Assembly: GCA_963607765.1 (NCBI GenBank)
Contig: CAVDDT010000034.1
Span: forward strand, 440-64,439
Direction of reading: 5' to 3'
From: Paratractidigestivibacter sp.
Lineage (GTDB): Bacteria; Bacillota_I; Bacilli_A; Erysipelotrichales; Erysipelotrichaceae
Length of the DNA: 64,000 nucleotides
Shown here: one piece after another, positions 1,021 through 24,717 of the stretch
Numbering within the stretch: position 1 is the stretch's first letter
Layout: each line of letters opens with the position of its first letter
Notes under the pieces: model-generated
Database searches by the model: none
What the model was told of the DNA's origin: nothing
What the model saw: the letters and a program-made list of their open reading frames with translations, nothing else
Position numbers and translations under genes: made by a program

Positions 1021-2496
1021 ATGGCTTGTACAACAATTTTAGTAGGCAAGAAGGCATCATATGATGGTTCTTGTATTATTGCGCGTAATGATGATTCGGG
1101 CGCAGGAAATTATACTCCAAAAAAGTATGTGATTATTAATCCAAAGGATCAGCCAAGAAAATATACTACTTGTATTTCTCATCTAACAATTGATCTTGAA
1201 GATAATCCCTTAACTTATTCAGCTACCCCAAATGTTAATAGAGAACATGGAATTTGGTGTGCTGCTGGTGTTAATAGTTTAAATGTGGCAATGAGTGCAA
1301 CGGAGACTATTACGTCTAATCCTAGAGTGCTTGGAGCTGATCCTCTTGTGAATTATATAAAGGGTGATGGCAAGAAAAAGGACATTCCAGGTGGAATTGG
1401 TGAAGAGGATATTGTTCATATCATTTTGCCTTATATTAAAAGTGCCAGAGAAGGTGTTATTAGACTTGGCTCTATGCTTGAAAAATACGGCACTTATGAA
1501 ATGAATGGTATTGCTTTTGCGGATGAGAAAGAAATTTGGTGGTTAGAGACTGTTGGTGGACATCATTTCTTGGCTAAAAGAGTTGAAGATGATGAATATG
1601 TTGTGATGCCAAATCAATTTGGCATGGATGAGTATGACTTAGATGATGGCGTCGGCAAACAAGTTAAGCATATTTGTTCAAAGGATATGAAGGAATTTAT
1701 CAAAGATAATCATTTAGATTTAAGCAATGATGATTATTTCAATCCAAGATTAGCCTTTGGTTCTCATGATGATTCTGATCATATCTATAACACACCTAGA
1801 GCTTGGTATATGCTTAAGTACTTTAATCCAACTTTCTGTGATTGGGAAAGCGATTATAGGCCTGAGGATGATGATCTCCCATTTAGTATGGTTCCTGAAA
1901 GAAAGATTACTATCGAGGATGTTAAATATATTCTATCTAGCCATTTCCAAGGAACTCCATATGACCCATATTTAAGCTATGGTGATAAAAGCTTAGCTGG
2001 AAAGTACCGTAGTATTGGTGTAAATCGTACTGATGATTTAGAGATTATTCAATTAAGGCCTTATGGAAACAAGATGACAAGGCCAATTGAGTGGCAAGCT
2101 TTTGGTTCTAATGTGTTTAATGTTTGTATACCACAATATACATGTGTAGATAAAAGTCCTAGTTATTTAAATTGCACAACTGAGAATGTAGATACTAATA
2201 GTTTTTATTGGGTAAGTAGATTAATTGGTGCGATGGCTGATGCATCTTATAAAGACAGTTTAAATACCATTGAGAGGTATCAATTGGCTGGGGCATCTTT
2301 GGGCAATAAACTAATTAATGAATATGATAAGCAATTTAGTAAGCTAAAAAAGAAAGAGGATATTTCCAAGTTAGCTATTAAGGCTAATCAAAATATTTGT
2401 GATGAGTTTGAAAAGTTAAGTAAGGATACTTTGAATAAGGTTCTTAAGTCTTGCAGCAATAAGATGAAGAATGCTTTTTCTAGAAGTGATGCATAA
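1021..2496 (+). CDS. C69-family dipeptidase (dipeptidase A / PepD-like)
   Basis: N-terminus MACTTILVGKKASYDGS with Cys3 as the N-terminal nucleophile, typical of C69 peptidases. Length 491 aa. SD aaggag lies upstream. Confidence 0.85.
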   Translation: MACTTILVGKKASYDGSCIIARNDDSGAGNYTPKKYVIINPKDQPRKYTTCISHLTIDLEDNPLTYSATPNVNREHGIWCAAGVNSLNVAMSATETITSNPRVLGADPLVNYIKGDGKKKDIPGGIGEEDIVHIILPYIKSAREGVIRLGSMLEKYGTYEMNGIAFADEKEIWWLETVGGHHFLAKRVEDDEYVVMPNQFGMDEYDLDDGVGKQVKHICSKDMKEFIKDNHLDLSNDDYFNPRLAFGSHDDSDHIYNTPRAWYMLKYFNPTFCDWESDYRPEDDDLPFSMVPERKITIEDVKYILSSHFQGTPYDPYLSYGDKSLAGKYRSIGVNRTDDLEIIQLRPYGNKMTRPIEWQAFGSNVFNVCIPQYTCVDKSPSYLNCTTENVDTNSFYWVSRLIGAMADASYKDSLNTIERYQLAGASLGNKLINEYDKQFSKLKKKEDISKLAIKANQNICDEFEKLSKDTLNKVLKSCSNKMKNAFSRSDA

Positions 2497-2583
2497 ATTA
2501 AAACTTTCACGCAGTTTACACAATTGGATGGTACATTAATAACAGTAAAAGAAATAATTTTTTCATTAAAACCTTCCAAATGT

Positions 2584-2605
2584 AAAAAAGCCTAACGGCT
2601 TTTTT
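2584..2605. terminator. Hairpin terminator with A-run/T-run on both sides
   Basis: aaaaaagcc-taac-ggctttttt. Confidence 0.7.
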
Positions 2606-2648
2606 ACTTTACACAAATATATTAAAATGATTTCGGAGGATTATTCTT

Positions 2649-3524
2649 ATGAGTAAATATATTATTACATGTTGTTCAACCGTTGACTTGTCTGATGAAC
2701 TATTGAAGAAGAGAAATATACCTTATGTTAGTTTTACATTTACTGCAGATGGTAAAACATATAAAGATGATTATGGTAAATCTTATCCAATCGATAAGTT
2801 TTATAAAGATGTAAGCAATGGTATGCAGCCTATCACATCTCAAGTTAATGTTGATGATTATATTCAATTTTTTGAGCCTTATTTAAAAGATGGCTATGAT
2901 GTTCTTCATTTAACTTTATCAAGTGGCATTTCCGGTACTGTTAATAGTGCTAATGGTGCTGCGGCTATTTTGAACGATCAATATGAGGCCAAAGTTCATG
3001 TTGTTGATACTTTGTGTGCTAGCTCTGGCTATGGTTTAATTGTTACACTTGCGAAAAATAATTATGATGATGGCATGTCTCTTGAAGATAACATTGCTTG
3101 GATTAATGAAAATAAGACAAAGATTATTCACTGGTTCTTCTCTACGGATTTAAGTTCGTTTATTAGAGGTGGAAGAATTTCTAAGACTGCTGGTTTCTTT
3201 GCGGGAGCACTTCAAATTTGCCCATTAATGTGTGTATCTAAGGTTGGCAAGCTTGAGGTTCTTGAAAAAATCAGAACTAAGAAAAAAGCTATGAAGGCCG
3301 TGGTTGAAAAAATGTATGAGGAAGTTGGTCCTGAATATGATGGCCTTGTCTATATTTCTAATTCAGCTTGTAGAGAAGACGCTGAAACTCTTGCGGCTAT
3401 GATTGAGGATACTTTCAAGAATGTTAAGGAAGTTGAAATCTTTGATATTGGCACAGTAATTGGCACTCATACTGGTGTTGGTACCGTCGCAACGTTCTAT
3501 GTTGGCAAACAAAGGGCTGTCTAA
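2649..3524 (+). CDS. DegV-family fatty-acid-binding protein
   Basis: 291 aa. Has the DegV-like N-terminus (..IITCCSTVDL..), LSSGISGT and a C-terminal GTHTGVGT segment. SD ggagga. Confidence 0.8.
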   Translation: MSKYIITCCSTVDLSDELLKKRNIPYVSFTFTADGKTYKDDYGKSYPIDKFYKDVSNGMQPITSQVNVDDYIQFFEPYLKDGYDVLHLTLSSGISGTVNSANGAAAILNDQYEAKVHVVDTLCASSGYGLIVTLAKNNYDDGMSLEDNIAWINENKTKIIHWFFSTDLSSFIRGGRISKTAGFFAGALQICPLMCVSKVGKLEVLEKIRTKKKAMKAVVEKMYEEVGPEYDGLVYISNSACREDAETLAAMIEDTFKNVKEVEIFDIGTVIGTHTGVGTVATFYVGKQRAV

Positions 3525-3547
3525 AGAAAAAACTAATTGAATATTAT

Positions 3548-3577
3548 AAAGCATCTATCGAGTGGTAGATGCTTTTT
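3548..3577 (+). terminator. Rho-independent terminator after degV-like gene
   Basis: Stem GCATCTA (3551-3557) / TAGATGC (3566-3572) followed by ttttt. A second weaker hairpin (ggctacatttgtagcc) follows at about 3588-3603. Confidence 0.75.
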
Positions 3578-3817
3578 AAAAAGAAAAGGCTACATTTGTA
3601 GCCAATCTTTTGTTTATATTTTATAAAGGGGGGATATTCGTAAAGTCTTAATCACTTTACAATTTATATAGTAAATATCTAATGTGAACTCTTTATGTAG
3701 AAAATGTGAAAGTTTTGTGAGAATTAAAAATGATAATTTGCGCGAAAATGGTTTGATGACATTGTCTAACAATCTATTTAAGTGCTTTTTGTAAAGTTTG
3801 TGGTGTAAACTAATATT

Positions 3818-4921
3818 ATGAGTTTAACTGCAGGAATTATTGGACTGCCTAATGTAGGTAAGTCAACTTTATTTAACGCTATAACAAATTCAAGAGTTGA
3901 GGCAGCTAATTATCCTTTTGCGACTATTGAACCAAATGTCGGTGTAGTAGAAGTAAAGGATGAGAGATTAGTTAATTTAGCTAAAATATTTGAACCAGAA
4001 AGGACTATTTTCACAACTTTTGAATTTACTGATATCGCTGGTCTTGTTAAGGGTGCTAGTACTGGTGAAGGACTTGGAAATAAGTTTCTAGCTAATATTA
4101 GAGAAGTGGATGCGATTTGTCACGTTGTTAGATGTTTTGAAGATAATGATATTCAACATGTCTACAATCGTATTGATCCAGTTGATGATATTGAGATTAT
4201 CAACTATGAATTAATCATGGCTGATATGGCTACTTGTGAGAATAGAATTTCTAAGGTAGAAAAGAAGGCTTTGACTACTAAGGATAAGGAGTCAATGTTT
4301 GAATATAATATTCTAAAGAGAATCCACGAGGCTTTAGGTAAGTCAATGCTTGTAAGACAATTAGAGTTTAATGATGAGGAGAAAGCTTATATTAAACAAT
4401 TTTGTTTCTTAACTGCTAAGCCTGTTATTTATATCGGAAATATTAAGGAAGAAGAGATTAATGATCCTGATTCTAATCCTCATTTTGTTGCCTTAAAGGA
4501 ATATGCAGCTAAGGAAAATAGCGAAGTAGTTCCCATTAGTGCACATATCGAAGAAGAATTAAGCGATTTAAGTAAAGAAGATAAAGAGTCTTTCTTAAAT
4601 GATTTGGGTATTAATCATTCTGGATTAGATGAACTTATTTTAAAGGCTTATAAGACGCTAGGATTAAAGACTTTCTTTACTGTAGGAAAGGATGAATGTC
4701 GTGGTTGGACATTTACTGAAGGCATGAAGGCTCCAGATTGTGCTGGTGTCATCCATACAGATTTCAAGAGAGGTTTTATCAAGGCTGAGGTTTATGCTTA
4801 TGATGATATGATGGAATATAAGTCGGAGGCTAAGCTTAAGGAAGCTGGTAAGATTAGACAAGAGGGTAAAGAGTATCTTGTGAAAGATGGCGATGTTATC
4901 TTCTTTAAATTTAATGTATAA
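3818..4921 (+). CDS. ychF: Ribosome-binding ATPase YchF
   Basis: G1 GLPNVGKST, G3 DIAGLVKGAS, and the typical C-terminal ..GFIKAEV...KDGDVIFFKFNV. Length 367 aa. Confidence 0.95.
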   Translation: MSLTAGIIGLPNVGKSTLFNAITNSRVEAANYPFATIEPNVGVVEVKDERLVNLAKIFEPERTIFTTFEFTDIAGLVKGASTGEGLGNKFLANIREVDAICHVVRCFEDNDIQHVYNRIDPVDDIEIINYELIMADMATCENRISKVEKKALTTKDKESMFEYNILKRIHEALGKSMLVRQLEFNDEEKAYIKQFCFLTAKPVIYIGNIKEEEINDPDSNPHFVALKEYAAKENSEVVPISAHIEEELSDLSKEDKESFLNDLGINHSGLDELILKAYKTLGLKTFFTVGKDECRGWTFTEGMKAPDCAGVIHTDFKRGFIKAEVYAYDDMMEYKSEAKLKEAGKIRQEGKEYLVKDGDVIFFKFNV

Positions 4922-4923
4922 TT

Positions 4924-4944
4924 AAGGCCCGTTAGGGCTTTTTT
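4924..4944 (+). terminator. Weak hairpin plus T-run immediately before the tilS start
   Basis: aaGGCCC-gtta-GGGCtttttt. It ends 3 nt before the ATG at 4948. Confidence 0.5.
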
Positions 4945-4947
4945 ATT

Positions 4948-6126
4948 ATGGATAACAAGAAAAAAGTATTAGTCGCATGTTCGGGCGGGCCAGATTCAAT
5001 GGCTCTTTTAGACATGTATAAAGATAAGTATGATTGTAGTGTTGCTCATGTGAATTATCATCATCGTAATAGTGCCTTAAGAGATGAGAATATTGTTAGA
5101 GATTATTGCCTTAAATATAATATTCCTTTTTATAAGAAAGATTATGTTGAAAGTAAGGGCAATTTCCAAGAAAAGGCTAGAGAATTTAGATATGAATTTT
5201 TTAAAGAATTGTGCGATAAGCATAACTTAAGTTTTGTTTTGGTTGCCCATCATAAAGATGATTTAATTGAAACTTATCTTTTTCAAAAAAAGAGAAATAG
5301 TCATGTTTATTACTATGGCTTAAAGAGCAATGTGAATATTTATGGTGTCAATGTAAGAAGGCCTTTGCTTAGTAAGACAAAAAAGGATTTAGAGGAATAT
5401 TGTGTTAGTCATAATCTTGAATATGGAATTGATGAATCTAATTTGGGCGATGAATTTTCACGCAATAAGATAAGGCATAGTGTTATTGATAAGATGTCCA
5501 TAAAAGAAAAAAATAAGCTTGTCAGGGAAATTAGAGATGTTAATAGGAAGAATGATTTATTAAATAAAGAATGTAGAACTTTTATTAATAAAAGAACTAA
5601 GATTGATTTTGATGAATTTATTAAGTATCCTGATTTAAAAAGATTGATTAGAATGTTTGTGGGAATTAGCCTTTCAAGCAAACAGTCTGATGAGCTTATT
5701 AGGCAACTAAAGAGTACTAATAGTTTTGAGATACTAATTGAAGATCGATATTTGTGTAAGGAATATGGATATATAGAAGTTTATAAAAAAGAAGATGATT
5801 ACACTTATTCTTTTGATTCTATTTCTTGTTTTAAATGTAAATATTTTAAATTGTCTAAAAAAGGAAGCAGTAAAGAAGGCGTTACTTTAAGTGAAAATGA
5901 TTTTCCAATTACTATTAGAAATTTTAGAGATGGGGATTTTATTTTGATGAGATATGGGACGAAAAAAATTAGTCGTTTTTTTATCGATAATAAGATTTCT
6001 AGTAGGGAAAGAAAGGTGTGGCCAATTATGTTTAATAAAGATGGGAGTGCTATTTTAGTGCCAAAAATAGGCTGTAATAGACATCATTATTCTATTAAAC
6101 ACAACTTATATATGATAAAATCTTAA
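4948..6126 (+). CDS. tilS: tRNA(Ile)-lysidine synthase
   Basis: PP-loop motif VACSGGPDSMAL. Shows the conserved Firmicute tilS-hpt-ftsH order. Confidence 0.9.
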   Translation: MDNKKKVLVACSGGPDSMALLDMYKDKYDCSVAHVNYHHRNSALRDENIVRDYCLKYNIPFYKKDYVESKGNFQEKAREFRYEFFKELCDKHNLSFVLVAHHKDDLIETYLFQKKRNSHVYYYGLKSNVNIYGVNVRRPLLSKTKKDLEEYCVSHNLEYGIDESNLGDEFSRNKIRHSVIDKMSIKEKNKLVREIRDVNRKNDLLNKECRTFINKRTKIDFDEFIKYPDLKRLIRMFVGISLSSKQSDELIRQLKSTNSFEILIEDRYLCKEYGYIEVYKKEDDYTYSFDSISCFKCKYFKLSKKGSSKEGVTLSENDFPITIRNFRDGDFILMRYGTKKISRFFIDNKISSRERKVWPIMFNKDGSAILVPKIGCNRHHYSIKHNLYMIKS

Positions 6127-13337: not shown

Positions 13338-14210
13338 ATGAGTGAAAATATTAAATATCTATCAGTTCGTTTTCAAACTACGAACAAAACATATACTTTT
13401 TCTACTGTAGACGAGTCTGTTAAAAATGGTGATGCGGTTATTGTGGAGACACAAAGAGGTATCGAATACGCAAGAGTAATTGCTGATCCATTTGATAAGC
13501 CTAATGTAGAAATGGAAATTAAGGGGATCATTAGAAAAGCTACAAGAGAAGACCAAGATGCTTATGAAAAAAATCTTGATGATAGTAAGAAGGCTAGAGA
13601 AATTTGCCAAAAGGAAGCAGATAAATTAAAACTTGGTATGAATGTCATTTCTAGCGAGTATACTCTTGATAGAAGTAAGATTACTTTTATTTATTTAGCT
13701 GATGATCGCGTAGACTTTAGAGAACTGTTAAAGGTTTTGGCCGCTATTTTTAGATGCCGTATTGATTTAAGGCAAGTTGGCACAAGAGATAAGGCGAAGA
13801 TGGTTTCTGGTATTGGCCCTTGCGGAAGGGAACTTTGTTGCGCAAAGTATATTACGGAATTTGATCGCATTTCGATTAATATGGCCAAAAATCAATTGTT
13901 GGCTTTAAATGTTTCGAAGCTATCTGGTCAATGTGGAAACTTGATGTGTTGTTTAAAATATGAAGATGAGGCATATAAGGATTTAAGAAAGTCTTTGCCT
14001 AAGATGAATAGTTACATTGAATATGAAGGCGAAAAATACAAGCTTACTTCAATGAATGTTATTGCCCGCAATTGCAAGCTTGAGAATCCTGAACATGCGA
14101 TTTTTATTTCATTGGATGATTTATCTAATAAGGGCAAGGTTTTAAAGCCTAAAAATAACAACAATAATAATAATCAAAAGAATAATAGCGAGGAAAGTGT
14201 CAGTGAATAA
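13338..14210 (+). CDS. ricT: PSP1-domain protein RicT (YaaT)
   Basis: PSP1 C-terminal domain with paired Cys motifs GPCGRELCC and GQCGNLMCC. Shows the Bacillus-like position after holB. Confidence 0.85.
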   Translation: MSENIKYLSVRFQTTNKTYTFSTVDESVKNGDAVIVETQRGIEYARVIADPFDKPNVEMEIKGIIRKATREDQDAYEKNLDDSKKAREICQKEADKLKLGMNVISSEYTLDRSKITFIYLADDRVDFRELLKVLAAIFRCRIDLRQVGTRDKAKMVSGIGPCGRELCCAKYITEFDRISINMAKNQLLALNVSKLSGQCGNLMCCLKYEDEAYKDLRKSLPKMNSYIEYEGEKYKLTSMNVIARNCKLENPEHAIFISLDDLSNKGKVLKPKNNNNNNNQKNNSEESVSE

Positions 14211-15021: not shown

Positions 15022-15035
15022 CGCTATAATAAATT

Positions 15036-15141
15036 TGTTTTCAGGGCAGGGTTAGATTCCCGATCGGTGGTATACCCCACGAGCGTAAGCTGAACTTGTG
15101 AGATTCAAGTGGCGACAGTATAGTCTGGATGAAAGGAGACT
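15036..15141 (+). promoter_or_regulatory. FMN riboswitch (RFN element)
   Basis: Conserved core ..ttcagggcagggt.agattcccgatcggtggtat.ccccacgagc...ggcgacagtatagtctggatgaaaggag. It lies directly upstream of ribU. A possible -10 tataat is at 15025-15030. Confidence 0.85.
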
Positions 15142-15150
15142 TTTTATTTT

Positions 15151-15741
15151 ATGAAAACTAATTCTAAAACTCACTTAATAGTGATGGTTGCGATTCTTGG
15201 GGCACTAGCAGGAGTATTAATGCTTATTGAGTTTCCCCTTGTGATTGCACCACCTTTTTATAAAGTGGATTTATCTGATGTAGCTGCACTTTTCGCAGGA
15301 TATGCACTTGGACCTGTTTGTGGCATTCTGGTATGTCTTGTCAAAATTCTTATTTCAATTATTCTAAATGGTACAACTACCGCTTTTGTAGGTGAATTTG
15401 CGGCATTTGTGATGGATGGCAGTTTTGTCTTAACGGCTTGTGTTATTTATAAGAAGCATCATAATAAAAAAGGTGCTATATATTCATTGCTATTTGGAAC
15501 TTTAATGTTAATGATTGTTGGCGGTGTTATGAACTATTTTGTGATGATTCCAGCATATGTTAAGTTTATGAACATTCCTCTTGATACTATTATCTCAATG
15601 GGTAACGCAATATTTGGCTCAGTAAATTCACTACTAACATTAGTATTATTCTGTACAGTTCCATTTAATTTAGTAAAAGGAATAATTATTAGTCTAATCA
15701 CTTATTTGTTGTATAAGAGGGTATCACCTTTAATTAAATAA
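15151..15741 (+). CDS. ribU: Riboflavin transporter, ECF S-component RibU
   Basis: 196-aa protein with about six TM segments, immediately downstream of an FMN riboswitch. Confidence 0.85.
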   Translation: MKTNSKTHLIVMVAILGALAGVLMLIEFPLVIAPPFYKVDLSDVAALFAGYALGPVCGILVCLVKILISIILNGTTTAFVGEFAAFVMDGSFVLTACVIYKKHHNKKGAIYSLLFGTLMLMIVGGVMNYFVMIPAYVKFMNIPLDTIISMGNAIFGSVNSLLTLVLFCTVPFNLVKGIIISLITYLLYKRVSPLIK

Positions 15742-16698: not shown

Positions 16699-17667
16699 AT
16701 GAGAAGAAGACCTGGATTTGATTTTGGCGGAATATTTTTCCTATTCATTTTAATAGGAAGTTTTGGCGGCATTTTAGTTTCTGGATTACTATCTTTACTT
16801 GCGATAGTTGTTCCGGTTGGAATTATTGGCTATGCCATTTATAAATTGGTTGGAAACAAGAATACTAGCAGTGGCAACAGTTCGGTAAATGTGAATAAGA
16901 ATTATGGTGATTCGATAAGAAAGAATGTGAATAACACTTATGTTAGTAATATGAGTGTTCCTGAACTAAATAAAATCGATAAGAAACTTACATCTTATTT
17001 TAAGAATAGTGTTTCTTTGCCTGTAATTGATACTGTTTCTTTAACTACTCAATCAGGAAAGTTTACAACTGTTGATCAACTTTATTTAACTTATAAAGAT
17101 GAGAAGATATGCAAACTTGCGGAATTTAAACAAAAATTTCCTGATGTTTATAAGAAGATTATGGAATTGTTATTGGTGTTCTCTTCTAAGAGCGACGATG
17201 TCTTAAAGGCTAATGTTGAAACTAACGAAATTAAACAAGAGGATAAGCTTTCTGATGCCGACAAGTATATCAATAAGATTGATGAATTAAATAGAGCCAT
17301 TCCTCAAGAAGAGATCACAAATGGCTTGTATCAAACTTGTGATTTGTTAAAGAAGATTGATGTTTTAAGCGAGACACATAGCGATAATAATAAGATTTCT
17401 AAGCTATATGATTATTATTTGCCTATTTTAACCGGTGCTCTTGAAAAGTATAAGAAGCTTCAGGATGCGCCTGTTCATGGCGATGAATTTAAAGAGTGTG
17501 AGGCTTCTTTGATTAAGACGATTGTGCTTATTAACGAGGCTTTAAAGACTATTTGTTCAAGCATGCAAGAAGATGATTATATGAATATTAATGCCGATAT
17601 TAATACTTTGCAAAGCTTGCTTAAAAAGGATGGATATGGTGAGGATCCTTTTGGAGATAAGAAATAA
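16699..17667 (+). CDS. Membrane protein with XpaC-like (5-bromo-4-chloroindolyl phosphate hydrolysis protein family) C-terminal domain
   Basis: Two N-terminal TM helices (FFLFILIGSFGGILVSGLLSLLAIVVPVGIIGYAIY). The C-terminal ..YDYYLPILTGALEKYKKLQ...INADINTLQSLLKKDG resembles the XpaC family. Confidence 0.6.
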   Translation: MRRRPGFDFGGIFFLFILIGSFGGILVSGLLSLLAIVVPVGIIGYAIYKLVGNKNTSSGNSSVNVNKNYGDSIRKNVNNTYVSNMSVPELNKIDKKLTSYFKNSVSLPVIDTVSLTTQSGKFTTVDQLYLTYKDEKICKLAEFKQKFPDVYKKIMELLLVFSSKSDDVLKANVETNEIKQEDKLSDADKYINKIDELNRAIPQEEITNGLYQTCDLLKKIDVLSETHSDNNKISKLYDYYLPILTGALEKYKKLQDAPVHGDEFKECEASLIKTIVLINEALKTICSSMQEDDYMNINADINTLQSLLKKDGYGEDPFGDKK

Positions 17668-18242
17668 TGGCTGATCAAGATATTTATAAATTAGTTGAAC
17701 AATTAAATAAGAATAAAATTTCGGATAACACAAAGATTGATGAAATCTATAATTTGCTTGATTCTTTAAAAGATGATGAGGGCAATAAAAGCGAGATTAA
17801 ATTAACAACTGGTGAAGATAAGGCAGAATCTAGTGAGGATAAAAAGAGAACTACTACTTTAAGAGATTTAAAGGGTTCGGTTTTGCCTATTAAAAAACCT
17901 TCTTTTCCAAGTGAAATAAGAGCTTTTGAAAATAGGAGTGATTGTTTCTTTAATATTCTTAGTGAGGTCGATTATGGAAGCAAGAATAACGAGGATTATG
18001 TAAAGGGGCATAAGACTGCGCTTGAAAAATACTATACTGTTGTTAGAAATAATAATAAAGATTTATATGTTGTTGAAGGACAAGTTAATGATGAACTTGC
18101 TTCTTTTGTGACTAACAAGCTTAGCAATAACTACAACAAGGGCTACTATGATGGACTTGAGTTTGTGTTAAACGCTTTATATAAGTCTAAGGATTTGATT
18201 AGCAAGAAGATATATCAGGAATTATTGAAAGAGTTGGGATAA
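17667..18242 (+). CDS. Hypothetical protein (191 aa)
   Basis: The start overlaps the upstream stop (taATG) and the stop overlaps the downstream start in the same way. No motif recognised. Confidence 0.5.
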   Translation: MADQDIYKLVEQLNKNKISDNTKIDEIYNLLDSLKDDEGNKSEIKLTTGEDKAESSEDKKRTTTLRDLKGSVLPIKKPSFPSEIRAFENRSDCFFNILSEVDYGSKNNEDYVKGHKTALEKYYTVVRNNNKDLYVVEGQVNDELASFVTNKLSNNYNKGYYDGLEFVLNALYKSKDLISKKIYQELLKELG

Positions 18243-20215
18243 TGGATAAGAGTGAAAGAGAAAAGCTTATTGATGAGGTTTTAAATAAGAGAAGAACTTA
18301 TTCTATGGATGAGTCCTTGAAGATTATTAATGATACCGAGAAGGAACTTAATCGTTTGCTTAGTGATAATAAGAAGGGCATTGATGATTTGGTTAAGGAA
18401 AACAATGATTCTAATTATTTGAGTAATTTAAAGAGCCAAATGGAAAAAGACTTTGATACTAAGATTGAGACTCCTGAAACAGTAGTAGTTGGAAAAGGTT
18501 CGAAAGAGATTTTTGATAAGATTAACGAAGAATTAAAGAAGACTATTATTGGACAAGATGATGCTTGCGATAAGATTACTATGGCTTTTAGAAGGCCTTA
18601 TGTTGTTGGTTCTAATCCTTCTTTAATTAGAAATTCTATTATCGTATATGGTAATAATGGAACTGGCAGACATTTGCTTGTTAATACGATGGGCAAGCTT
18701 CTTTATGAAAATGGTTTAACTATTTCCAGTGAAGTAGCTATTCTTGATATGAAGAGATATCAATCGAGCAGTCAGGAAATTCTTTTCTTACAAGATTTAT
18801 ATGTAGCTTTAAGTGGTAGAAATCCAATTATTTTAATTGAGAACTTTAAAGAAAGTTCTTCTATTTATACAAGAATGCTTAATGAATTAGTTCTTGAGGG
18901 AAGATGTTTACTAAACCAAAGATATACTTTCGTGAATAATCAGCTTCAAGAGGCTACTAGTAAATTAAGTAAGGATGTGATTGATCATCTTGATGGCAAT
19001 AATAAAACTTTAGTGTTTGTTTCTGAAGATAGTCCAAGCAAGATAATGGATATTTTTGGCAAGGCTTTTATCGAAAAGATTGAGGATAAGGTTGAGACGG
19101 TTAAATTATCTGATGATGCACTTGATAGAATTATTGATAATCTATTAAAGGATTTAGAAACTAAAAGCGAGACTCAATTTGAGATGGATGTAGTGATTGA
19201 TGATAGCTTGAAAACTTATTTGAAAGAGAATTATGAGCCTAATGATGGAATTGATTCACTTACGCCAATTATTGATAAGATATATAACAGCTTAGTTAAT
19301 ATCGCTTTAAAGAATGATAATGTTGATACTTTAAAGCTTATGTATAAGGATTCTATTAAAGCTGTTTTCAATGAAAACGAAGTAGAGCTTGATATCGATG
19401 ATGATAGTTCTAAGGAAAGAGAAGAGATTCAAAAAGAATTAGATGAGATAGTTGGTCTTAAAAATGTTAAGGATTATCTTTTGTCTTTAGAGAATCATAT
19501 TAAGATTACTCAAATTAGAAAACAAAAGGGTTTAAAGACTTCTGAAGTTAGTAAACATATGATTTTTACTGGCAATCCTGGTACTGGTAAGACAACCATT
19601 GCCCGTATTGTTTCACGTATGATGAAGGCTTGTGGCATCCTTAAACAAGGACAGCTTGTTGAGGTTACTCGTGCTGACTTAGTTGGCAAATATGTTGGAC
19701 ACACTGCTCCTTTGACAATGGATATTATAAATAGTGCACTAGGCGGTGTGTTGTTTATTGATGAAGCATATTCATTATATAGAGGAAAAGATGATTCATT
19801 TGGTCTTGAGGCTATCGATACTTTAGTAAAGGGCATGGAAGATCATCGTGATGATTTAATTGTTATTTTGGCTGGTTATTCTAAGGAAATGGAAGAGTTT
19901 TTAACGGCTAATAGTGGGTTGAAGTCTAGATTTGCGAATATTATTCATTTCGATGATTATACTGGCGAGGAGATGATGCTTATTTCAAAGAGCATTGCTA
20001 AGGGCAAGGGCTATGCTATTGCGGATGAGGCAATTAAGCCTTTAACTGATTACTATACAATTATTCAGGGCAAAGATGATCCAAATAGTGGTAATGGTAG
20101 ACTTGCTAGAAATAAGGTTGAAGAGGCTATTTTAAAACAATCAAAGCGTTTGCTTGATAATCCTAATGATGATATTAGTGAATTAAAACTAGAGGATTTT
20201 GATTTAGGAGAATAA
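18242..20215 (+). CDS. Tandem AAA+ ATPase: degenerate Clp-D2-like module plus SpoVK/CbbX-like active module
   Basis: Module 1 has IIGQDDACDKITMAFRRP, Walker-A-like GNNGTGRH (18650-18673) and Walker-B position ILIEN. Module 2 has VGLKNVKDYL, Walker A GNPGTGKTT (19571-), Walker B VLFIDEAY and ..ILAGY...SRF. Confidence 0.8.
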   Translation: MDKSEREKLIDEVLNKRRTYSMDESLKIINDTEKELNRLLSDNKKGIDDLVKENNDSNYLSNLKSQMEKDFDTKIETPETVVVGKGSKEIFDKINEELKKTIIGQDDACDKITMAFRRPYVVGSNPSLIRNSIIVYGNNGTGRHLLVNTMGKLLYENGLTISSEVAILDMKRYQSSSQEILFLQDLYVALSGRNPIILIENFKESSSIYTRMLNELVLEGRCLLNQRYTFVNNQLQEATSKLSKDVIDHLDGNNKTLVFVSEDSPSKIMDIFGKAFIEKIEDKVETVKLSDDALDRIIDNLLKDLETKSETQFEMDVVIDDSLKTYLKENYEPNDGIDSLTPIIDKIYNSLVNIALKNDNVDTLKLMYKDSIKAVFNENEVELDIDDDSSKEREEIQKELDEIVGLKNVKDYLLSLENHIKITQIRKQKGLKTSEVSKHMIFTGNPGTGKTTIARIVSRMMKACGILKQGQLVEVTRADLVGKYVGHTAPLTMDIINSALGGVLFIDEAYSLYRGKDDSFGLEAIDTLVKGMEDHRDDLIVILAGYSKEMEEFLTANSGLKSRFANIIHFDDYTGEEMMLISKSIAKGKGYAIADEAIKPLTDYYTIIQGKDDPNSGNGRLARNKVEEAILKQSKRLLDNPNDDISELKLEDFDLGE

Positions 20216-20713
20216 ATGCGTTTAATTAAGCTTTGGGATAGTGATTTAAATAAGGCGTATCAGTTGCATCAAGAGATTGGCTTAGATGAAAATGGGTTTT
20301 CAAATAGCGCCAATGGAATTGATTTAAAAGCATTTAGGGAATATGTCTATGATAAAAAGTATAGAGAAACAGGTGAGAGACTGCCTAATGGTTTTGTGCC
20401 TGATACAACATATGTTTTAGAGAATGATGATGGGGAATATGTTGGTGTTTTTAATTTACGTCATTATTTAAATAAGTTTTTAGAAAATGGTCCTGGGCAT
20501 ATTGGTTATGCGATTTCAAATAAGTATAGAAAAATGGGCTATGGCACCAAGGGCTTAGCTCTTACTTTAATTGAGGCTAAAAAATTAGGCATTGATGTGG
20601 CTTATATGAGCTGTTACAAAGATAATATTGGCAGTTTAAAGGTTCAACTTAATAATGGTGCTTATATTGATAGAGAAGATGATTTTTCTTATTATACTAA
20701 GGTTAAGCTATAA
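20216..20713 (+). CDS. GNAT-family N-acetyltransferase
   Basis: 165 aa, with the acetyl-CoA-binding segment ..GHIGYAISNKYRKMGYGTKGL.. Confidence 0.75.
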   Translation: MRLIKLWDSDLNKAYQLHQEIGLDENGFSNSANGIDLKAFREYVYDKKYRETGERLPNGFVPDTTYVLENDDGEYVGVFNLRHYLNKFLENGPGHIGYAISNKYRKMGYGTKGLALTLIEAKKLGIDVAYMSCYKDNIGSLKVQLNNGAYIDREDDFSYYTKVKL

Positions 20714-20731
20714 TACTAAAGGGAGTTGTTG

Positions 20732-22615
20732 ATGGGGATTAAGGATACTGGCAAATCTATTTTAAAGTTGTTTGATAAAGAAGATGAAGTTTTTGCGGAA
20801 AATGAAACACAGGCTAATAAGCTTGTTGCTTCCTCAATGCTCCTTTTGTGCATCATTTTAATTGTATGCATAATTCTTAATAATTTAGGCATTTTTCAAA
20901 ACGATATAGATTCTTATAATACTGTTATTTCTCATAGTATTATTGAGCTTTTTATTCCGTTTATATTATGTTGTTTCTTTAAAGGACAAAAGAAATGGTT
21001 GAAGTATTTCCTATTGCTTGAGATGACGGTTGTTTTCGCAAGAATTGATTGTTCACTTGGTTATAATGTTACTTTGATAATGGCTATTCCGGTTGTTCTT
21101 TCATGTAGATATTTTTCAAGTAAGTTCACAATAGTTATTGCGGTAGTTACTGCTTTATTGTTTGGACTATCTAGTTTTGCGAATGCATACTGGGACATGG
21201 GTGTCTTTGATTTAAATTTTTATAGCTTACCTGCTGGCACAGTTTTAGATAGCAGCGTTAGTGTTATTGAGGCAATTAAAAAGATAGGCATTGATGTTCC
21301 TACTAGGGTCTATCAAATGATGGTTTTAAACTATGGGTCTAAATTGTTTGTTTTCTTTATCATTACTGTAATTTGTGTGAGAATTGCTCAAACTGGCCAT
21401 GACATGGTTTTAAAACAAAGATATGTCACTAAAAAATCAATGCGTATTGAATCTGAGCTTAATTTAGCTACTAATATTCAAGCTCACATGCTTCCTAATA
21501 TTTTTCCTGCTTTTCCAGACGACAATGAATTCGACTTATATGCAAGCATGAAACCTGCTAAGGAAGTCGGCGGCGATTTCTATGATTTTGATAAACTTGA
21601 TGATACTCATTTAGCCTTAGTTATTGCGGACGTTTCGGGAAAAGGTATTCCAGCAGCGTTGTTTATGGTTATTGCCAAGACAATAATTAAAAACGAATTG
21701 CACATGGGCTATTCGCTTGAACAAGTTCTTTCTAAGGTTAATCATATGCTTTGTGAAGGCAATACCGATGGCATGTTTGTTACTGCTTGGGTTGGTGTTT
21801 TTGATGTTGAAACGGGTATTTTAGAATATGTTAGTGCTGGACATAATCCTCCATGTGTTCTCCAAGATGGGAATTATCATTTATTAAAGAGCAAGCCTGG
21901 ATTTGTTTTGGCGGGCTTAGATGGCGTTATGTATCATAGGCAATCAATCACATTAAGCCCAGGTGATAAAATATTCTTGTATACTGATGGTGTTACTGAG
22001 GCTATTGATAAAGATGAAAACATGTATGGTGATCAGCGCTTGCTTGAATATATGAATGCCCACAAGGACTATGGTCCTAAAGAAATGATTAATGGTGTTA
22101 AAGGTGATTTAAGCAATTTTGCGCTTGGTACCGAGCAGTTTGATGATGTTACGATGTTGATGATGGAATATAAAAAGAAAAAGGAAGTGGTTCATATGAA
22201 AGAGAAAGAGTTTAATCTTCCAGAGAATACGGTTGATGATGTTTTGAAATATATTGAGACAGAATTAAACGCTGTTAATTGTCCGATTAAGGCTCTTCAA
22301 CAAATTCTTATTTGCACAGAAGAAATTTTTGTGAATATTGCTAGTTATGCTTATGCAAATAAAAATGGTAAGGTTTTATTGGCTACTTCTATTGATGAAA
22401 ATAAGGCAGTTATTCAATTTAAAGATTCCGGTGTTCCATTTAATCCTCTCGAGATGAAGGATCCTGATGTTACTTTATCCGCTAAGGAAAGAGATGTTGG
22501 CGGTCTTGGAATTTATATAGTTAAGAAGGTAATGGATGAGGTTAATTATACTTATCAAAATGGATGTAACATTCTAACTATTGGGAAGGAATATAAAGAT
22601 GGATGTGTTAGATAA
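20732..22615 (+). CDS. Polytopic membrane PP2C (SpoIIE/RsbU-type) phosphatase fused to an RsbW/SpoIIAB-type HATPase kinase domain
   Basis: The TM region spans about the first 225 aa. PP2C motifs are GGDFYDF, VIADVSGKGIPAA, TDGVTEA and FDDVTMLMM (about 21443-22174). The HATPase has N-box EEIFVNIASYA, DSGVPFNP and GGLGIYIVKK (about 22208-22615). ATG at 20732 follows SD aaagggag; the ORF track starts at TTG 20726. Confidence 0.85.
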   Translation: MGIKDTGKSILKLFDKEDEVFAENETQANKLVASSMLLLCIILIVCIILNNLGIFQNDIDSYNTVISHSIIELFIPFILCCFFKGQKKWLKYFLLLEMTVVFARIDCSLGYNVTLIMAIPVVLSCRYFSSKFTIVIAVVTALLFGLSSFANAYWDMGVFDLNFYSLPAGTVLDSSVSVIEAIKKIGIDVPTRVYQMMVLNYGSKLFVFFIITVICVRIAQTGHDMVLKQRYVTKKSMRIESELNLATNIQAHMLPNIFPAFPDDNEFDLYASMKPAKEVGGDFYDFDKLDDTHLALVIADVSGKGIPAALFMVIAKTIIKNELHMGYSLEQVLSKVNHMLCEGNTDGMFVTAWVGVFDVETGILEYVSAGHNPPCVLQDGNYHLLKSKPGFVLAGLDGVMYHRQSITLSPGDKIFLYTDGVTEAIDKDENMYGDQRLLEYMNAHKDYGPKEMINGVKGDLSNFALGTEQFDDVTMLMMEYKKKKEVVHMKEKEFNLPENTVDDVLKYIETELNAVNCPIKALQQILICTEEIFVNIASYAYANKNGKVLLATSIDENKAVIQFKDSGVPFNPLEMKDPDVTLSAKERDVGGLGIYIVKKVMDEVNYTYQNGCNILTIGKEYKDGCVR

Positions 22616-23174
22616 GGCTATTGAGTTTGCCACAAAAGCTCACTCTGGCCAAGTTCGTAAGCTTGCCAATACACCATATATCTTGCATCCAATGGAGGTT
22701 GCTGCTATCATTTCTACTCTTACGAGTGATAAGGAAACAATGGCTGCTGGTCTTCTACATGATACGGTTGAGGATTGTAATATTGATCCATTAACTATTT
22801 ATAAGGAATTTGGCAAAAGAGTATATGGCCTAGTATTAAGTGAGACTGAAGATAAGCTAAGTGATAGGCCTGCTAGTGAGACTTGGATGGAGCGCAAGGA
22901 AGAATCTCTTTTGATGCTTGAAAATACTAAGGATGAACATGTACGTATCTTGTGGCTTTCAGATAAGTTATCTAACATGCGTTCATTCTATCGTGAGTAT
23001 CTTAAACATGGTGATGACATTTGGAATAGTCTTAATCAAAAAGATCCTTCTAAACAAGAATGGTATTATCGCTCAATCGCGAAAAGTTTAGTTAGTTTAA
23101 AAGATAGTGCAGCATATATAGAGTATGTTGAACTTGTTGATAAAGTATTTGGAAAGGAAAACAAACATGGATAG
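22599..23174 (+). CDS. HD-domain protein of the RelA/SpoT hydrolase-only type ((p)ppGpp-hydrolase-like)
   Basis: ..AIEFATKAHSGQVRK...PYILHPMEVA...AAGLLHDTVEDC.. ATG at 22599 follows ggaagga. It overlaps the upstream gene by 17 nt. Confidence 0.8.
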   Translation: MDVLDKAIEFATKAHSGQVRKLANTPYILHPMEVAAIISTLTSDKETMAAGLLHDTVEDCNIDPLTIYKEFGKRVYGLVLSETEDKLSDRPASETWMERKEESLLMLENTKDEHVRILWLSDKLSNMRSFYREYLKHGDDIWNSLNQKDPSKQEWYYRSIAKSLVSLKDSAAYIEYVELVDKVFGKENKHG

Positions 23175-24333
23175 TGTTAATGAGAATGGCGTACTTACTG
23201 TTTATTTAGAGGGACGTATCACGGCTGATAATTCTGCTGATGTTGGAAAAGAGATTGAGGAAATTCTTGAAAAAGAGCCTCACAATGAGCTTGTTTTCAA
23301 TTGTGGCAAGCTAGAATATATTGCTAGTGCCGGACTTCGTGTAGTTCTTCGTACCAAGAAAAAAGAACCAGCTTTAAAGATGGTTGATGTTAAAAGTGAA
23401 GTATATGACATCTTTGAAATGACTGGTTTTACAGAAATGATGGATATTGAAAAGGCATATCGCGAAATTTCTGTCGATGGTTGCGAAGTAATTGGACAGG
23501 GTTCAAATGGCAAGGTATATCGAATTGATCCAGATACTATTGTCAAAGTGTTTTTTAATTCAGATGCCTTAGCTGATATTCATAGAGAAAGAGAGTTAGC
23601 TAGAACAGCGTTTGTATTGGGTATTCCCACTGCTATTTCATATGATGTAGTTAAGGTTGGCGACACTTATGGTTCAGTATTTGAACTTCTTAATGCGAAT
23701 AGTTATATCAAAGAGATTATTAAAGATCCTAGTAGTATTGATAAATATATAAAGCTTTCAGTGGATTTGTTGAAGAAGATTCATGCGACTAAGGTAAAGC
23801 CTGGCGAATTGCCTGATATTAAGCTAACTGTCTTGGGATGGGTTGATTATTTAAAGGATTATCTTCCAGAGGATAAATACAACAAGCTTAAGAAGATGGT
23901 TGAGGATGTTCCTGATACAAATACAATGATTCATGGTGATTATCATATGAAGAATTTGATGATTCAAGATGGTGAAACACTTCTAATTGATATGGATACA
24001 CTTGCACAAGGCCATCCAATATTTGAACTTGGCAGTGTATTTAATGCTTATGTTGGATTCTCAGAACTTGATCATAATAACTGCTTGGGTTTCTTGGGTA
24101 TCCCATATGAACAATGTGAATATATTTGGAATAAAACACTTCCTTTATATCTTGATACTACTGATGATAAGAGAATTAAGGAAGTTGAGAATAAGGCTAG
24201 AATAGTAGGCTATACTCGTTTAATGAGACGTACTATTAAACGATTGGGTTTTGAAAAAGCTGGCGATAGTATAGAGTTTTATAAAGAAAACTTAATGAAA
24301 TTAATTGATGAAGTTGACACACTTGTGTTCTAG
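23167..24333 (+). CDS. STAS (anti-sigma-antagonist-like) domain fused to an APH/choline-kinase-fold kinase domain
   Basis: The STAS part is ..LEYIASAGLRVVL.. (Ser codon at 23326-23328). The kinase part has IGQGSNGKVYR, VKVF, HGDYHMKNLM and LIDMD. ATG at 23167 follows aaaggaaa and overlaps the HD gene by 8 nt. Confidence 0.8.
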   Translation: MDSVNENGVLTVYLEGRITADNSADVGKEIEEILEKEPHNELVFNCGKLEYIASAGLRVVLRTKKKEPALKMVDVKSEVYDIFEMTGFTEMMDIEKAYREISVDGCEVIGQGSNGKVYRIDPDTIVKVFFNSDALADIHRERELARTAFVLGIPTAISYDVVKVGDTYGSVFELLNANSYIKEIIKDPSSIDKYIKLSVDLLKKIHATKVKPGELPDIKLTVLGWVDYLKDYLPEDKYNKLKKMVEDVPDTNTMIHGDYHMKNLMIQDGETLLIDMDTLAQGHPIFELGSVFNAYVGFSELDHNNCLGFLGIPYEQCEYIWNKTLPLYLDTTDDKRIKEVENKARIVGYTRLMRRTIKRLGFEKAGDSIEFYKENLMKLIDEVDTLVF

Positions 24334-24345
24334 AAAGAGGATAAT

Positions 24346-24642
24346 ATGACAATTGATAATGTTAAAGATGGAGAAACACTTACTTTAAAACTTACTGGTA
24401 GACTTGATACCACTACTGCTCCTGAGCTTGAGGCTGCAGTAAATAGAGAGGTTGATGGAATCAAGAATGTAGTGCTAGATATGGAAAAACTTGAATATGT
24501 TTCTAGTGCTGGTTTGCGTGTATTGCTTTCTATTCAAAAGAAGATGGCTGACAATGGAACATTTGTCTTAAAGAATGTTTGTGATGAAATCAAAGAGGTA
24601 CTAGATATCACTGGTTTCTCTTCATTCCTTACTATTGAGTAA
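24346..24642 (+). CDS. Single-domain STAS protein (anti-sigma factor antagonist family)
   Basis: 98 aa, with ..LEYVSSAGLRVLL.. carrying the conserved phosphorylatable Ser (24505-24507). SD agagga. Confidence 0.85.
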   Translation: MTIDNVKDGETLTLKLTGRLDTTTAPELEAAVNREVDGIKNVVLDMEKLEYVSSAGLRVLLSIQKKMADNGTFVLKNVCDEIKEVLDITGFSSFLTIE

Positions 24643-24686
24643 AGTTTATTAGAGGACTGGTCGAAAGACCATGGTCTACACTATTG

Positions 24687-24712
24687 GCGGGTAAGACACC
24701 CGCTTTTCTTTT
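24687..24712 (+). terminator. Rho-independent terminator closing the 16699-24642 block
   Basis: GCGGGT (24687-24692) / ACCCGC (24698-24703), followed by ttttctttt. Confidence 0.8.
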
Positions 24713-24717
24713 ATCTT

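Follow-up and report, generated by a model that had tools for sequence, protein, structure and literature searches.

A predicted membrane sensor–PP2C–GHKL kinase fusion heads a conserved STAS cassette lacking a sigma factor gene in Paratractidigestivibacter sp.

The window analyzed here is a 64,000-nucleotide stretch of DNA from Paratractidigestivibacter sp. (GTDB family Erysipelotrichaceae; GenBank assembly GCA_963607765.1, contig CAVDDT010000034.1, positions 440 to 64,439 of the forward strand). It encodes a fusion protein in which a polytopic membrane domain, a SpoIIE-type PP2C serine phosphatase domain and an RsbW/SpoIIAB-type GHKL serine kinase domain follow one another in a single chain. 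The fusion gene heads a cassette of four consecutive genes that overlap or are separated by short gaps; it is followed by genes for an HD_4 hydrolase-like protein, for a STAS domain fused to an APH-family kinase (STAS-APH) and for a stand-alone STAS protein, and then by a terminator-like hairpin (Table 1). Both STAS domains are encoded in the same predicted transcription unit as the fusion protein. We think it probable, without being confident, that the fusion protein is anchored in the membrane and works as a bifunctional regulator in a type of partner switch, with a sensor-gated phosphatase, a kinase that resets the system, and a STAS phosphorylation state that controls the APH-like kinase.

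The phosphatase and kinase domains of the fusion protein

The open reading frame (ORF) that holds the fusion gene spans 20726-22615 on the forward strand. Its likely start is the ATG at 20732, which is preceded, at a distance of 6 nt, by the ribosome-binding site AAAGGGAG. A record that is 100% identical to the 627-aa protein (P0001) is present in a public metagenome assembly, and there are at least 120 full-length homologs of 610-650 aa with 43-63% identity, all of them with both Pfam domains. The few homologs that carry a name are entered as ‘SpoIIE family protein phosphatase’ and come from metagenome-assembled genomes of Erysipelotrichaceae or Clostridia. Judged by this conservation, which is far beyond chance and extends to both domains in all homologs listed, the fusion protein is the product of a real, conserved gene.

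PF07228 matches the phosphatase domain almost end to end (E 7.1e-50; 170.1 bits against a cut-off of 25; model positions 1-191 of 192), as does PF13581 the kinase domain (E 1.9e-20; 73.6 bits against a cut-off of 27.4; model positions 7-125 of 127). Conservation was judged in two alignments, of 31 and 97 sequences. In the 97 homologs the PP2C metal ligands D282, D285, D300, D419, D471 and D472 are invariant, together with G303 and G420, and the metal-ligand motifs align with the same motifs in Rv1364c of Mycobacterium tuberculosis. The kinase residues N535, D565, G567, G590, G591 and G593 are likewise invariant, while E531 is kept in at least 90% of the sequences. The kinase domain aligns with Bacillus subtilis RsbW (6M36, E 4.5e-5) and with SpoIIAB (1TID and 1TH8), and its boxes fall in register with theirs: E531/N535 in the N-box, D565-x-G567 in the G1 box and G590-G591-L-G593 in the G2 box. 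Because the catalytic residues are conserved and the kinase aligns with the RsbW/SpoIIAB boxes, both phosphatase and kinase activities are very probably retained in the fusion protein.

A preliminary description of this DNA, made from the sequence alone, had proposed a membrane region of ~225 aa followed by PP2C and HATPase_c_2 domains. Pfam and hydropathy analysis confirm this architecture, and all of the motifs quoted there are located in the 627-aa protein at the sites claimed for them. The concern raised in that description, that the HATPase module might lack ATP-binding residues, does not apply, as the N, G1 and G2 residues are present and conserved. It had also called for structure prediction; the full protein has now been modeled with AlphaFold2 (97-sequence alignment), with a mean predicted local distance difference test score (pLDDT) of 84.9 and a predicted template modeling score (pTM) of 0.52.

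Rv1364c is the closest solved relative in both sequence and structure searches. Its RsbU and RsbW domains (3KE6) are the best match to the fusion protein in the PDB by sequence (E 4.6e-13) and the best Foldseek match to the model (E 1e-18), the latter over 362 columns that take in both domains. The PP2C domain by itself matches Rv1364c, RssB, SiaA and SpoIIE in sequence or fold. Scores against the NCBIfam equivalog models are low throughout: 36.5 bits against a cut-off of 145 for NF003144 (RsbW), 28.8 against 155 for TIGR01924 (RsbW), 26.1 against 135 for TIGR01925 (SpoIIAB) and 38.1 against 490.8 for TIGR02865 (spore_II_E), the last match being confined to the PP2C part. With scores this far under the equivalog cut-offs, orthology of the fusion protein to SpoIIE, RsbW or SpoIIAB is rejected. 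Pfam finds no RsbU_N, PAS, STAS or Response_reg domain in the 627-aa protein.

A modular membrane sensor joined to the phosphatase by a helix

The family-averaged hydropathy profile of the N-terminal domain has six peaks, at aa 33-53, 66-80, 92-105, 112-123, 134-149 and 202-216. Segments rich in lysine and arginine (K/R) lie at the N-terminus and at aa 81-91, 124-131 and 217-230, a distribution that fits a six-helix topology with both termini inside and a sizeable outside loop at aa 153-198. The preliminary description had suggested that topology prediction be used to find the extracytoplasmic loops, and hydropathy and K/R distribution place the candidate loop there. The AlphaFold2 model matches this topology except that it draws aa 90-127 as a single continuous helix; since model and hydropathy differ at this point, the choice between five and six helices is not fully settled.

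The membrane domain contains the conserved motifs NE-x-AN, K-x-WLKY, PVVLS-x-RY and DLN. It has no Pfam match even at an E-value of 10, and a scan of the whole protein gave no NCBIfam match to this part, so the domain is not assignable to a known sensor family. A profile search with the membrane domain recovered 928 representative clusters (E ≤ 1e-3) among 1.84 billion proteins. The architectures behind the domain were classed for the best 148 of these 928 clusters with local hidden Markov models, supplemented by a Pfam scan of 10 outliers. In this sample the membrane domain precedes PP2C alone in 72 representatives and PP2C plus kinase in 32; a further 25 consist of the membrane domain alone or are fragments, and 16 have other outputs. 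The 10 of these 16 that were scanned comprise seven proteins with a LytS-type His_kinase and HATPase_c, two with HisKA and HATPase_c (one of which carries an added receiver (REC) domain) and one with the signaling domain of methyl-accepting chemotaxis proteins (MCP). The N-terminal membrane domain is thus, on the strength of these sequence architectures, a modular sensor, because the same domain is found ahead of PP2C, PP2C-HATPase_c_2, histidine kinases and MCP.

Proteins that resemble paralogs, with the membrane domain and PP2C and no kinase domain, occur at four other loci (L009, L014, L029 and L074; locus identifiers are our own). No STAS or HATPase_c_2 gene was found in their flanks (1.4-8 kb downstream and 8 kb upstream), so the genes for their substrates would have to lie elsewhere.

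In the model, the last membrane helix runs on without a break as a linker helix into the PP2C domain, and this linker contains a conserved RIESELNLA-x-x-IQ-x-x-MLP segment. Coiled-coil or dimeric helical linkers activate RsbU-type PPM phosphatases with exchangeable sensors, and are also used by histidine kinases and cyclases (PMC12143880). As in the RsbU-type PPMs, a comparable helix precedes the phosphatase here; as modeled, it matches the published linker idea for that group and would, by analogy, carry a signal from the membrane into PP2C.

The four-gene cassette and its partners

The HD_4 gene overlaps the 3' end of the fusion gene by 17 nt. Its product matches PF13328 (E 6.7e-21; 75.1 bits against a cut-off of 27.2) and, nearly over its full length (aa 4-184), the small alarmone hydrolases 7QOE and 4YF1 (E ~1e-21). 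The sequence ‘LHP...LLHDTVED’ supplies an H...HD...ED motif in this putative hydrolase.

In the STAS-APH protein the kinase motifs GxGxxG, HGDxxxxN and DxD take the form GQGSNGKVY, HGDYHMKN and IDMD. Its AlphaFold2 model has a pLDDT of 92.8 and a pTM of 0.79, and the kinase part distantly resembles APH(3'), APH(4), MTR kinase and FN3K (E ~1e-9, template modeling score ~0.5). The family is abundant and, at 59-76% identity, better conserved than the sensor protein; the only annotations of its members are ‘anti-sigma factor antagonist’ and ‘TIGR02172 family’.

Both STAS domains have a putative phospho-acceptor serine at position 54, encoded at 23326-23328 in the STAS-APH gene and at 24505-24507 in the stand-alone STAS gene. 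Each S54 aligns with the acceptor of SpoIIAA, which is the residue that differs between the SpoIIAA chains of 1TH8 and 1TID. S54 of STAS-APH is invariant in homologs, and the Y(I/V)SSAGLR motif is kept in 48 stand-alone STAS and 13 APH-fused homologs. Two STAS proteins near the fusion gene had been mentioned in the preliminary description, and both are indeed present with the acceptor serine; that one of them is a STAS-kinase fusion had gone unnoticed, and the HD hydrolase in the cassette and the lack of a sigma factor there had been overlooked.

The cassette ends in a hairpin and T-run that resemble an intrinsic terminator. An Rfam match to DUF3800-XI at 24653-24701 (+) (42.3 bits against a gathering score of 37.8) overlaps this terminator; it lies in the 90 nt that separate the STAS gene from mnmE, where a hairpin with a GAAA tetraloop is followed by the terminator hairpin. 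Ten related loci that were scanned, nine of them with a STAS-APH or HD_4 partner gene, gave no DUF3800-XI match, which makes it improbable that this RNA belongs to the cassette module. Rfam finds no riboswitch or leader upstream of the cassette, none of the four cassette proteins has a PADLOC match to anti-phage defense, and no paralogs of them are encoded elsewhere in the window. A literature search for STAS with APH, for TIGR02172, or for a small alarmone hydrolase together with STAS or partner switching returned nothing relevant.

Table 1. Coordinates of the fusion gene, its domains and motifs, and the other elements of the cassette.
Feature	Window position	Strand	Residues or length	Basis or remark
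Membrane sensor–PP2C–GHKL kinase fusion gene	20732..22615 (stop codon included)	+	627 aa	ORF, ribosome-binding site, homologs, AlphaFold2 model
Polytopic membrane domain, 5-6 helices, ~45-aa loop (aa 153-198)	20732..21406	+	aa 1-225	Hydropathy, K/R distribution
Last membrane helix continuous with linker helix into PP2C	21296..21490	+	aa 189-253	AlphaFold2, conservation
SpoIIE-type PP2C (PPM) serine phosphatase domain	21599..22171	+	aa 290-480	Pfam PF07228, invariant Asp ligands
PP2C motifs GGDFYDF; ADVSGKG			aa 280-286; aa 299-305	627-aa numbering
PP2C motifs TDGVTEA; FDDVTM			aa 418-424; aa 470-475	627-aa numbering
Lys-rich inter-domain linker KKKKE	22172..22186	+	aa 481-485	Sequence; poorly conserved across family
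HATPase_c_2 (RsbW/SpoIIAB-type GHKL serine kinase) domain	22229..22582	+	aa 500-617	Pfam PF13581, alignments
Kinase N-box and G-boxes EEIFVNIASYA; DSGVPFNP; GGLGIY			aa 530-540; aa 565-572; aa 590-595	
HD_4 protein (RelA/SpoT-hydrolase-like, small-alarmone-hydrolase-like)	22599..23174	+	191 aa	Pfam PF13328, PDB matches
STAS domain fused to APH-family (eukaryotic-like fold) kinase	23167..24333	+	388 aa	Pfam STAS and APH, NCBIfam TIGR02172-like
Stand-alone STAS protein (anti-sigma-antagonist type)	24346..24642	+	98 aa	Pfam STAS, E 2.6e-17
Intrinsic-terminator-like hairpin and T-run ending the cassette	24686..24714 (hairpin 24686-24704)	+		7-bp stem, 5 GC pairs, TTTCTTTTAT tail

Conservation of the cassette in other genomes

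The closest homolog of the fusion protein (63% identity) is encoded in a cassette with the same four genes in the same order, within unrelated flanks (L081 and L082). Among other full-length homologs the gene order is STAS/fusion/HD_4/STAS-APH in L084, fusion/STAS-APH/STAS in L085 and STAS/fusion/STAS-APH in L001, and a STAS-domain gene adjoins all six of the full-length homologs examined. HD_4 takes the same position in L081, L082, L084 and L090. The same partners also accompany PP2C-kinase proteins with other N-terminal regions: that of L090 has a Cache sensor, and those of L002, L007, L008, L018, L023, L057 and L088 have N-terminal regions that are unassigned. In L019 (2506-4251) HD_4, STAS and APH are united in one ORF of 582 aa, a Rosetta-stone link between the three. 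In L013 and L032 the APH-fused STAS is the only STAS near the PP2C-kinase gene; for this reason, the gene neighborhoods suggest that STAS-APH may be a direct substrate of the PP2C-kinase protein.

A different partner is found in L086, where a homolog with 49% identity (2928-4973) lies beside a 681-aa fusion of Metallophos, 5'-nucleotidase and STAS, and a PAS-guanylate/adenylate-cyclase-type gene and two genes for cyclic nucleotide (cNMP)-binding proteins are situated just upstream.

Transporter and channel genes were also seen around these cassettes. An SDF-family (PF00375) transporter gene of 530-550 aa recurs directly beside STAS/STAS-APH cassettes (L087, 6493-8148; L088, 931-2529; L089, 1967-3571; L090, 687-2348; L023, 5028-6695; L016, 723-2336) and is absent from the window. 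L084 encodes a 581-aa protein in which a MatE transporter is fused to HATPase_c_2, i.e., an RsbW-type kinase (2057-3802); its gene is 0.9 kb upstream of the first gene of the cassette, a STAS gene, and 1.2 kb from the sensor gene. A mechanosensitive-channel gene separates the MatE-HATPase_c_2 gene from the cassette in L084, and another is located beside the cassette in L089.

Fused and split forms of the phosphatase and kinase

Relatives were scanned with one genome per species, giving 80 loci from Bacillota, Spirochaetota, Bacteroidota, Synergistota, Actinomycetota, Elusimicrobiota, Pseudomonadota and others. Most matches span aa ~232-619, which is to say that the PP2C-kinase core is found behind other N-terminal regions. 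PP2C and kinase share one ORF in 42 of the loci, the kinase is a separate ORF in 24, and 14 have PP2C only; some of the loci counted as split could be assembly frameshifts. A STAS gene is present in 33 of the 42 fused relatives. In L005, L048 and L067 phosphatase and kinase are adjacent or overlapping separate genes. Fused and split forms interleave on a crude neighbor-joining tree of the PP2C domains, with at least 13 changes between the two states. The PP2C and kinase genes thus appear to have fused and separated readily in the course of evolution, an argument against a covalent link that is essential to the mechanism.

Comparison with characterized systems

Rv1364c consists of a sensor, PP2C, a GHKL kinase and a STAS domain, and is reported to have both kinase and phosphatase activity on its own STAS domain (PMC7693655). 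The fusion protein shares with it the succession of PP2C and RsbW-type GHKL kinase in one chain and in the same order, at only ~20% identity. Rv1364c has a cytoplasmic PAS sensor, a fused C-terminal STAS domain and a link to SigF, whereas the present protein has a polytopic membrane domain as its sensor, separate genes encode the STAS domains (one of them joined to an APH-like kinase), and there is no sigma factor gene nearby. In Vibrio fischeri, the STAS protein SypA is the substrate of SypE, a ‘dual serine kinase/phosphatase’ (PMC8256260) with the domain order kinase-REC-PP2C (PMC3610818). The predicted arrangement here is alike in that one protein with an RsbW-like kinase and PP2C would set the serine phosphorylation of STAS, with a sigma-independent output. 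It is unlike the cytoplasmic SypE, which is controlled by receiver phosphorylation, in having the order sensor-PP2C-kinase and no REC domain.

SpoIIE-type PP2C and RsbW-type kinase are reportedly fused in OsaC of Streptomyces as well. ‘Bifunctional PP2C-STYK’ proteins exist in Campylobacterota (PMC9239204). Both of these kinds of fusion differ from the protein described here in having cytoplasmic REC or PAS/GAF sensors and different partners. The combination of opposing activities in one polypeptide, which the preliminary description implied to be new, is therefore an established design, as Rv1364c, SypE and the Campylobacterota proteins attest.

The cassette has its three domain families (PF07228, PF01740 and PF13581) and the context of the acceptor serine in common with the RsbU-RsbV-RsbW and SpoIIE-SpoIIAA-SpoIIAB systems of Bacillus. 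Those switches divide phosphatase and kinase between two proteins, and their kinase serves as an anti-sigma factor, whereas here both enzymes are fused and the cassette lacks a sigma gene. In Anabaena, All4160 is a STAS-glycosyltransferase under the control of an RsbW-like kinase and a SpoIIE-like phosphatase (bioRxiv 10.64898/2026.04.08.717354; PMC13555669). In the HenR/Alr3423/All4160 system, as in Pseudomonas SiaABC(D), a STAS phospho-switch controls an enzyme and not a sigma factor, which is the arrangement proposed here, and the STAS domain of All4160 is fused N-terminally to the enzyme as it is in STAS-APH. Unlike in the present cassette, the enzymes controlled in these two systems are a glycosyltransferase and a diguanylate cyclase, kinase and phosphatase are separate, and neither an HD hydrolase nor an APH-family kinase takes part. 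No report characterizing the present fusion-protein family, which is domain-annotated in databases, was found in the literature searched.

Proposed mechanism and alternative readings

A working model can be put together from these observations and the systems just compared. The kinase domain would use ATP to phosphorylate Ser54 of the stand-alone STAS protein, of STAS-APH, or of both. A membrane or extracytoplasmic signal would be sensed by the N-terminal domain and passed on through transmembrane helix 6 and the linker helix, probably as a dimer rearrangement of the kind described for RsbU, and would switch PP2C on or off. PP2C would remove the phosphate from S54, dephosphorylation being the regulated step, and the fused kinase would act as a stoichiometric, co-localized reset, as in the classical systems. 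The output would not be a sigma factor; instead, STAS phosphorylation would gate the fused APH-like kinase, either in cis or as STAS-APH is captured and released by the membrane-tethered kinase domain, with free STAS competing. The HD hydrolase may act in the same pathway. PP2C alone is the commonest partner of the sensor (72 vs. 32 representatives), and for this reason the phosphatase is taken to be the regulated activity.

Several observations weigh against this model. The function of the fusion-protein family is predicted from sequence, conservation and fold, and the arrangement of the domains relative to each other is uncertain in the AlphaFold2 model, as its pTM of 0.52 indicates. The topology allows five or six helices, the model drawing one at aa 90-127 where hydropathy and the positive-inside rule give two. 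A sigma factor or other target is possibly encoded elsewhere in the genome. Furthermore, the STAS-APH cassette of L089 has no PP2C and that of L087 neither PP2C nor kinase within 5 kb, so the link between STAS-APH and the phosphatase is frequent and not obligatory. The locus of a close homolog, L083, has STAS proteins only and no STAS-APH, and in L086 the partner of the sensor protein is another kind of STAS-enzyme fusion.

The preliminary description had favored a bidirectional switch, in which the membrane signal would reciprocally control kinase and phosphatase in the way that phosphorylation of the central receiver does in SypE. In its favor, one chain combines both predicted activities, and the catalytic residues of each are intact and conserved. 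Dual action on the STAS protein SypA is documented for SypE, and Rv1364c shows both activities. Yet the kinase is distal to the sensor, behind PP2C and the poorly conserved Lys-rich linker; the sensor domain is the more often found with PP2C alone, as counted above; and in close relatives the kinase is a separate gene, fused and split states having changed at least 13 times on the crude tree. Allosteric coupling inside a dimer would be compatible with all of these observations. A regulated phosphatase with a constitutive, co-localized kinase is nevertheless more parsimonious than a two-way switch, because the sensor occurs more often with PP2C alone and close relatives encode the kinase separately, and we regard reciprocal control as doubtful.

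Somewhat less likely again is a classical anti-sigma switch, in which HATPase_c_2 would sequester a distantly encoded sigma factor at the membrane, dephosphorylated STAS would free that sigma factor, and STAS-APH and HD would be accessory. The best family matches of the kinase domain are indeed RsbW and SpoIIAB, and an interaction with SigF has been reported for Rv1364c as the closest relative of known structure (PMC7693655). The NCBIfam scores, at 36.5 vs. 145 bits for RsbW and 26.1 vs. 135 for SpoIIAB, are however far below the cut-offs. No sigma factor gene was found in the cassette, among the 20 candidate ORFs of suitable size in the window, or beside the inspected homolog loci (L081-L088 and L090); L089 has the sole sigma factor gene seen, on the opposite strand and at a distance of 5 kb. 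The partners that are conserved are fusions of STAS with an enzyme, and sigma-independent systems are established in SypA/SypE, SiaABC and All4160.

That HATPase_c_2 is a pseudokinase, a non-catalytic docking domain that recruits STAS to the phosphatase, is very improbable. Docking interactions reportedly set substrate specificity in this phosphatase family (PMC11418112), and one study reports loss of kinase activity for Rv1364c, but invariance of N535, D565, G567, G590, G591 and G593 and near-invariance of E531 across 97 homologs would be unexpected for a pure docking domain. Finally, the notion that the fusion protein is the organism's own sporulation phosphatase SpoIIE or stress phosphatase RsbU, to which its membrane-anchored SpoIIE-type PP2C and its database name might point, is refuted as orthology by the equivalog scores (38.1 vs. 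490.8 bits for TIGR02865) and the architecture, as RsbU_N is missing, the membrane domain and C-terminal kinase are unlike both proteins, and neither spoIIAB/sigF nor rsbW/sigB is adjacent.

The regulated-phosphatase model can be extended, tentatively, to the output of the cassette, and to this extension we attach limited weight. The cassette may constitute a sigma-independent pathway in which a membrane signal sets STAS phosphorylation, which in turn gates an APH-family small-molecule kinase. The APH kinase would produce a phosphorylated small molecule, possibly a nucleotide messenger, and the HD enzyme would remove it. The single HD-STAS-APH ORF of L019 and the Metallophos/5'-nucleotidase-STAS fusion of L086, with its cyclase-type gene and cNMP-binding proteins, are consistent with this reading.

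Surroundings of the cassette in the window

The window has a GC content of 32% and a strong positive GC skew, and nearly all of its genes are on the forward strand. Directly upstream of the cassette are four tightly packed genes (16699-20713, forward strand) with abutting start and stop codons. They encode a 322-aa membrane protein (orf322) with weak similarity to XpaC (PF10112), a 191-aa protein (orf191) of no family, a 657-aa AAA+ ATPase (AAA and AAA_lid_6, with only weak PADLOC AAA matches) and a GNAT acetyltransferase. As no homolog of the GNAT, AAA+, orf191 or orf322 gene occurs in any of 90 related loci, these four were rejected as members of the cassette module. Further upstream, a flavin mononucleotide (FMN) riboswitch (15033-15144, forward strand) precedes the gene for the S component of an energy-coupling factor (ECF) transporter (15151-15741). 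In the Solobacterium locus L001 an FMN riboswitch (13694-13807) and an MnmE-like gene are likewise found near the cassette, amounting to weak synteny with the window, which together with its base composition and strand bias fits an Erysipelotrichales-like origin.

Significance

Since dual STAS kinase/phosphatases are already established, the fusion itself adds little. The interest lies in its context, a conserved and abundant cassette of which no member was found to be characterized in the literature searched. What sets it apart from the characterized systems is the membrane sensor without a Pfam or NCBIfam model and a sigma-less cassette with STAS-APH and small-alarmone-hydrolase-like partners; no paper linking STAS-APH, the small-alarmone-hydrolase-like protein and partner switching was found in that literature. 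With ~930 representative clusters, and common to phosphatases, histidine kinases and MCP, the membrane domain appears to be an unannotated sensor family.

Our analysis suggests that partner-switch chemistry in anaerobic Bacillota controls enzymes, namely an APH-family kinase and a SpoT-like hydrolase, and not sigma factors. Such control of enzymes by a partner switch would extend the precedents of All4160 and SiaABC. If it is true that the APH-like kinase and the HD hydrolase share a small molecule, gut bacteria would have in this cassette a new regulated pathway for a metabolite or messenger, and this sigma-independent pathway would be widespread, in gut and rumen Bacillota and beyond.

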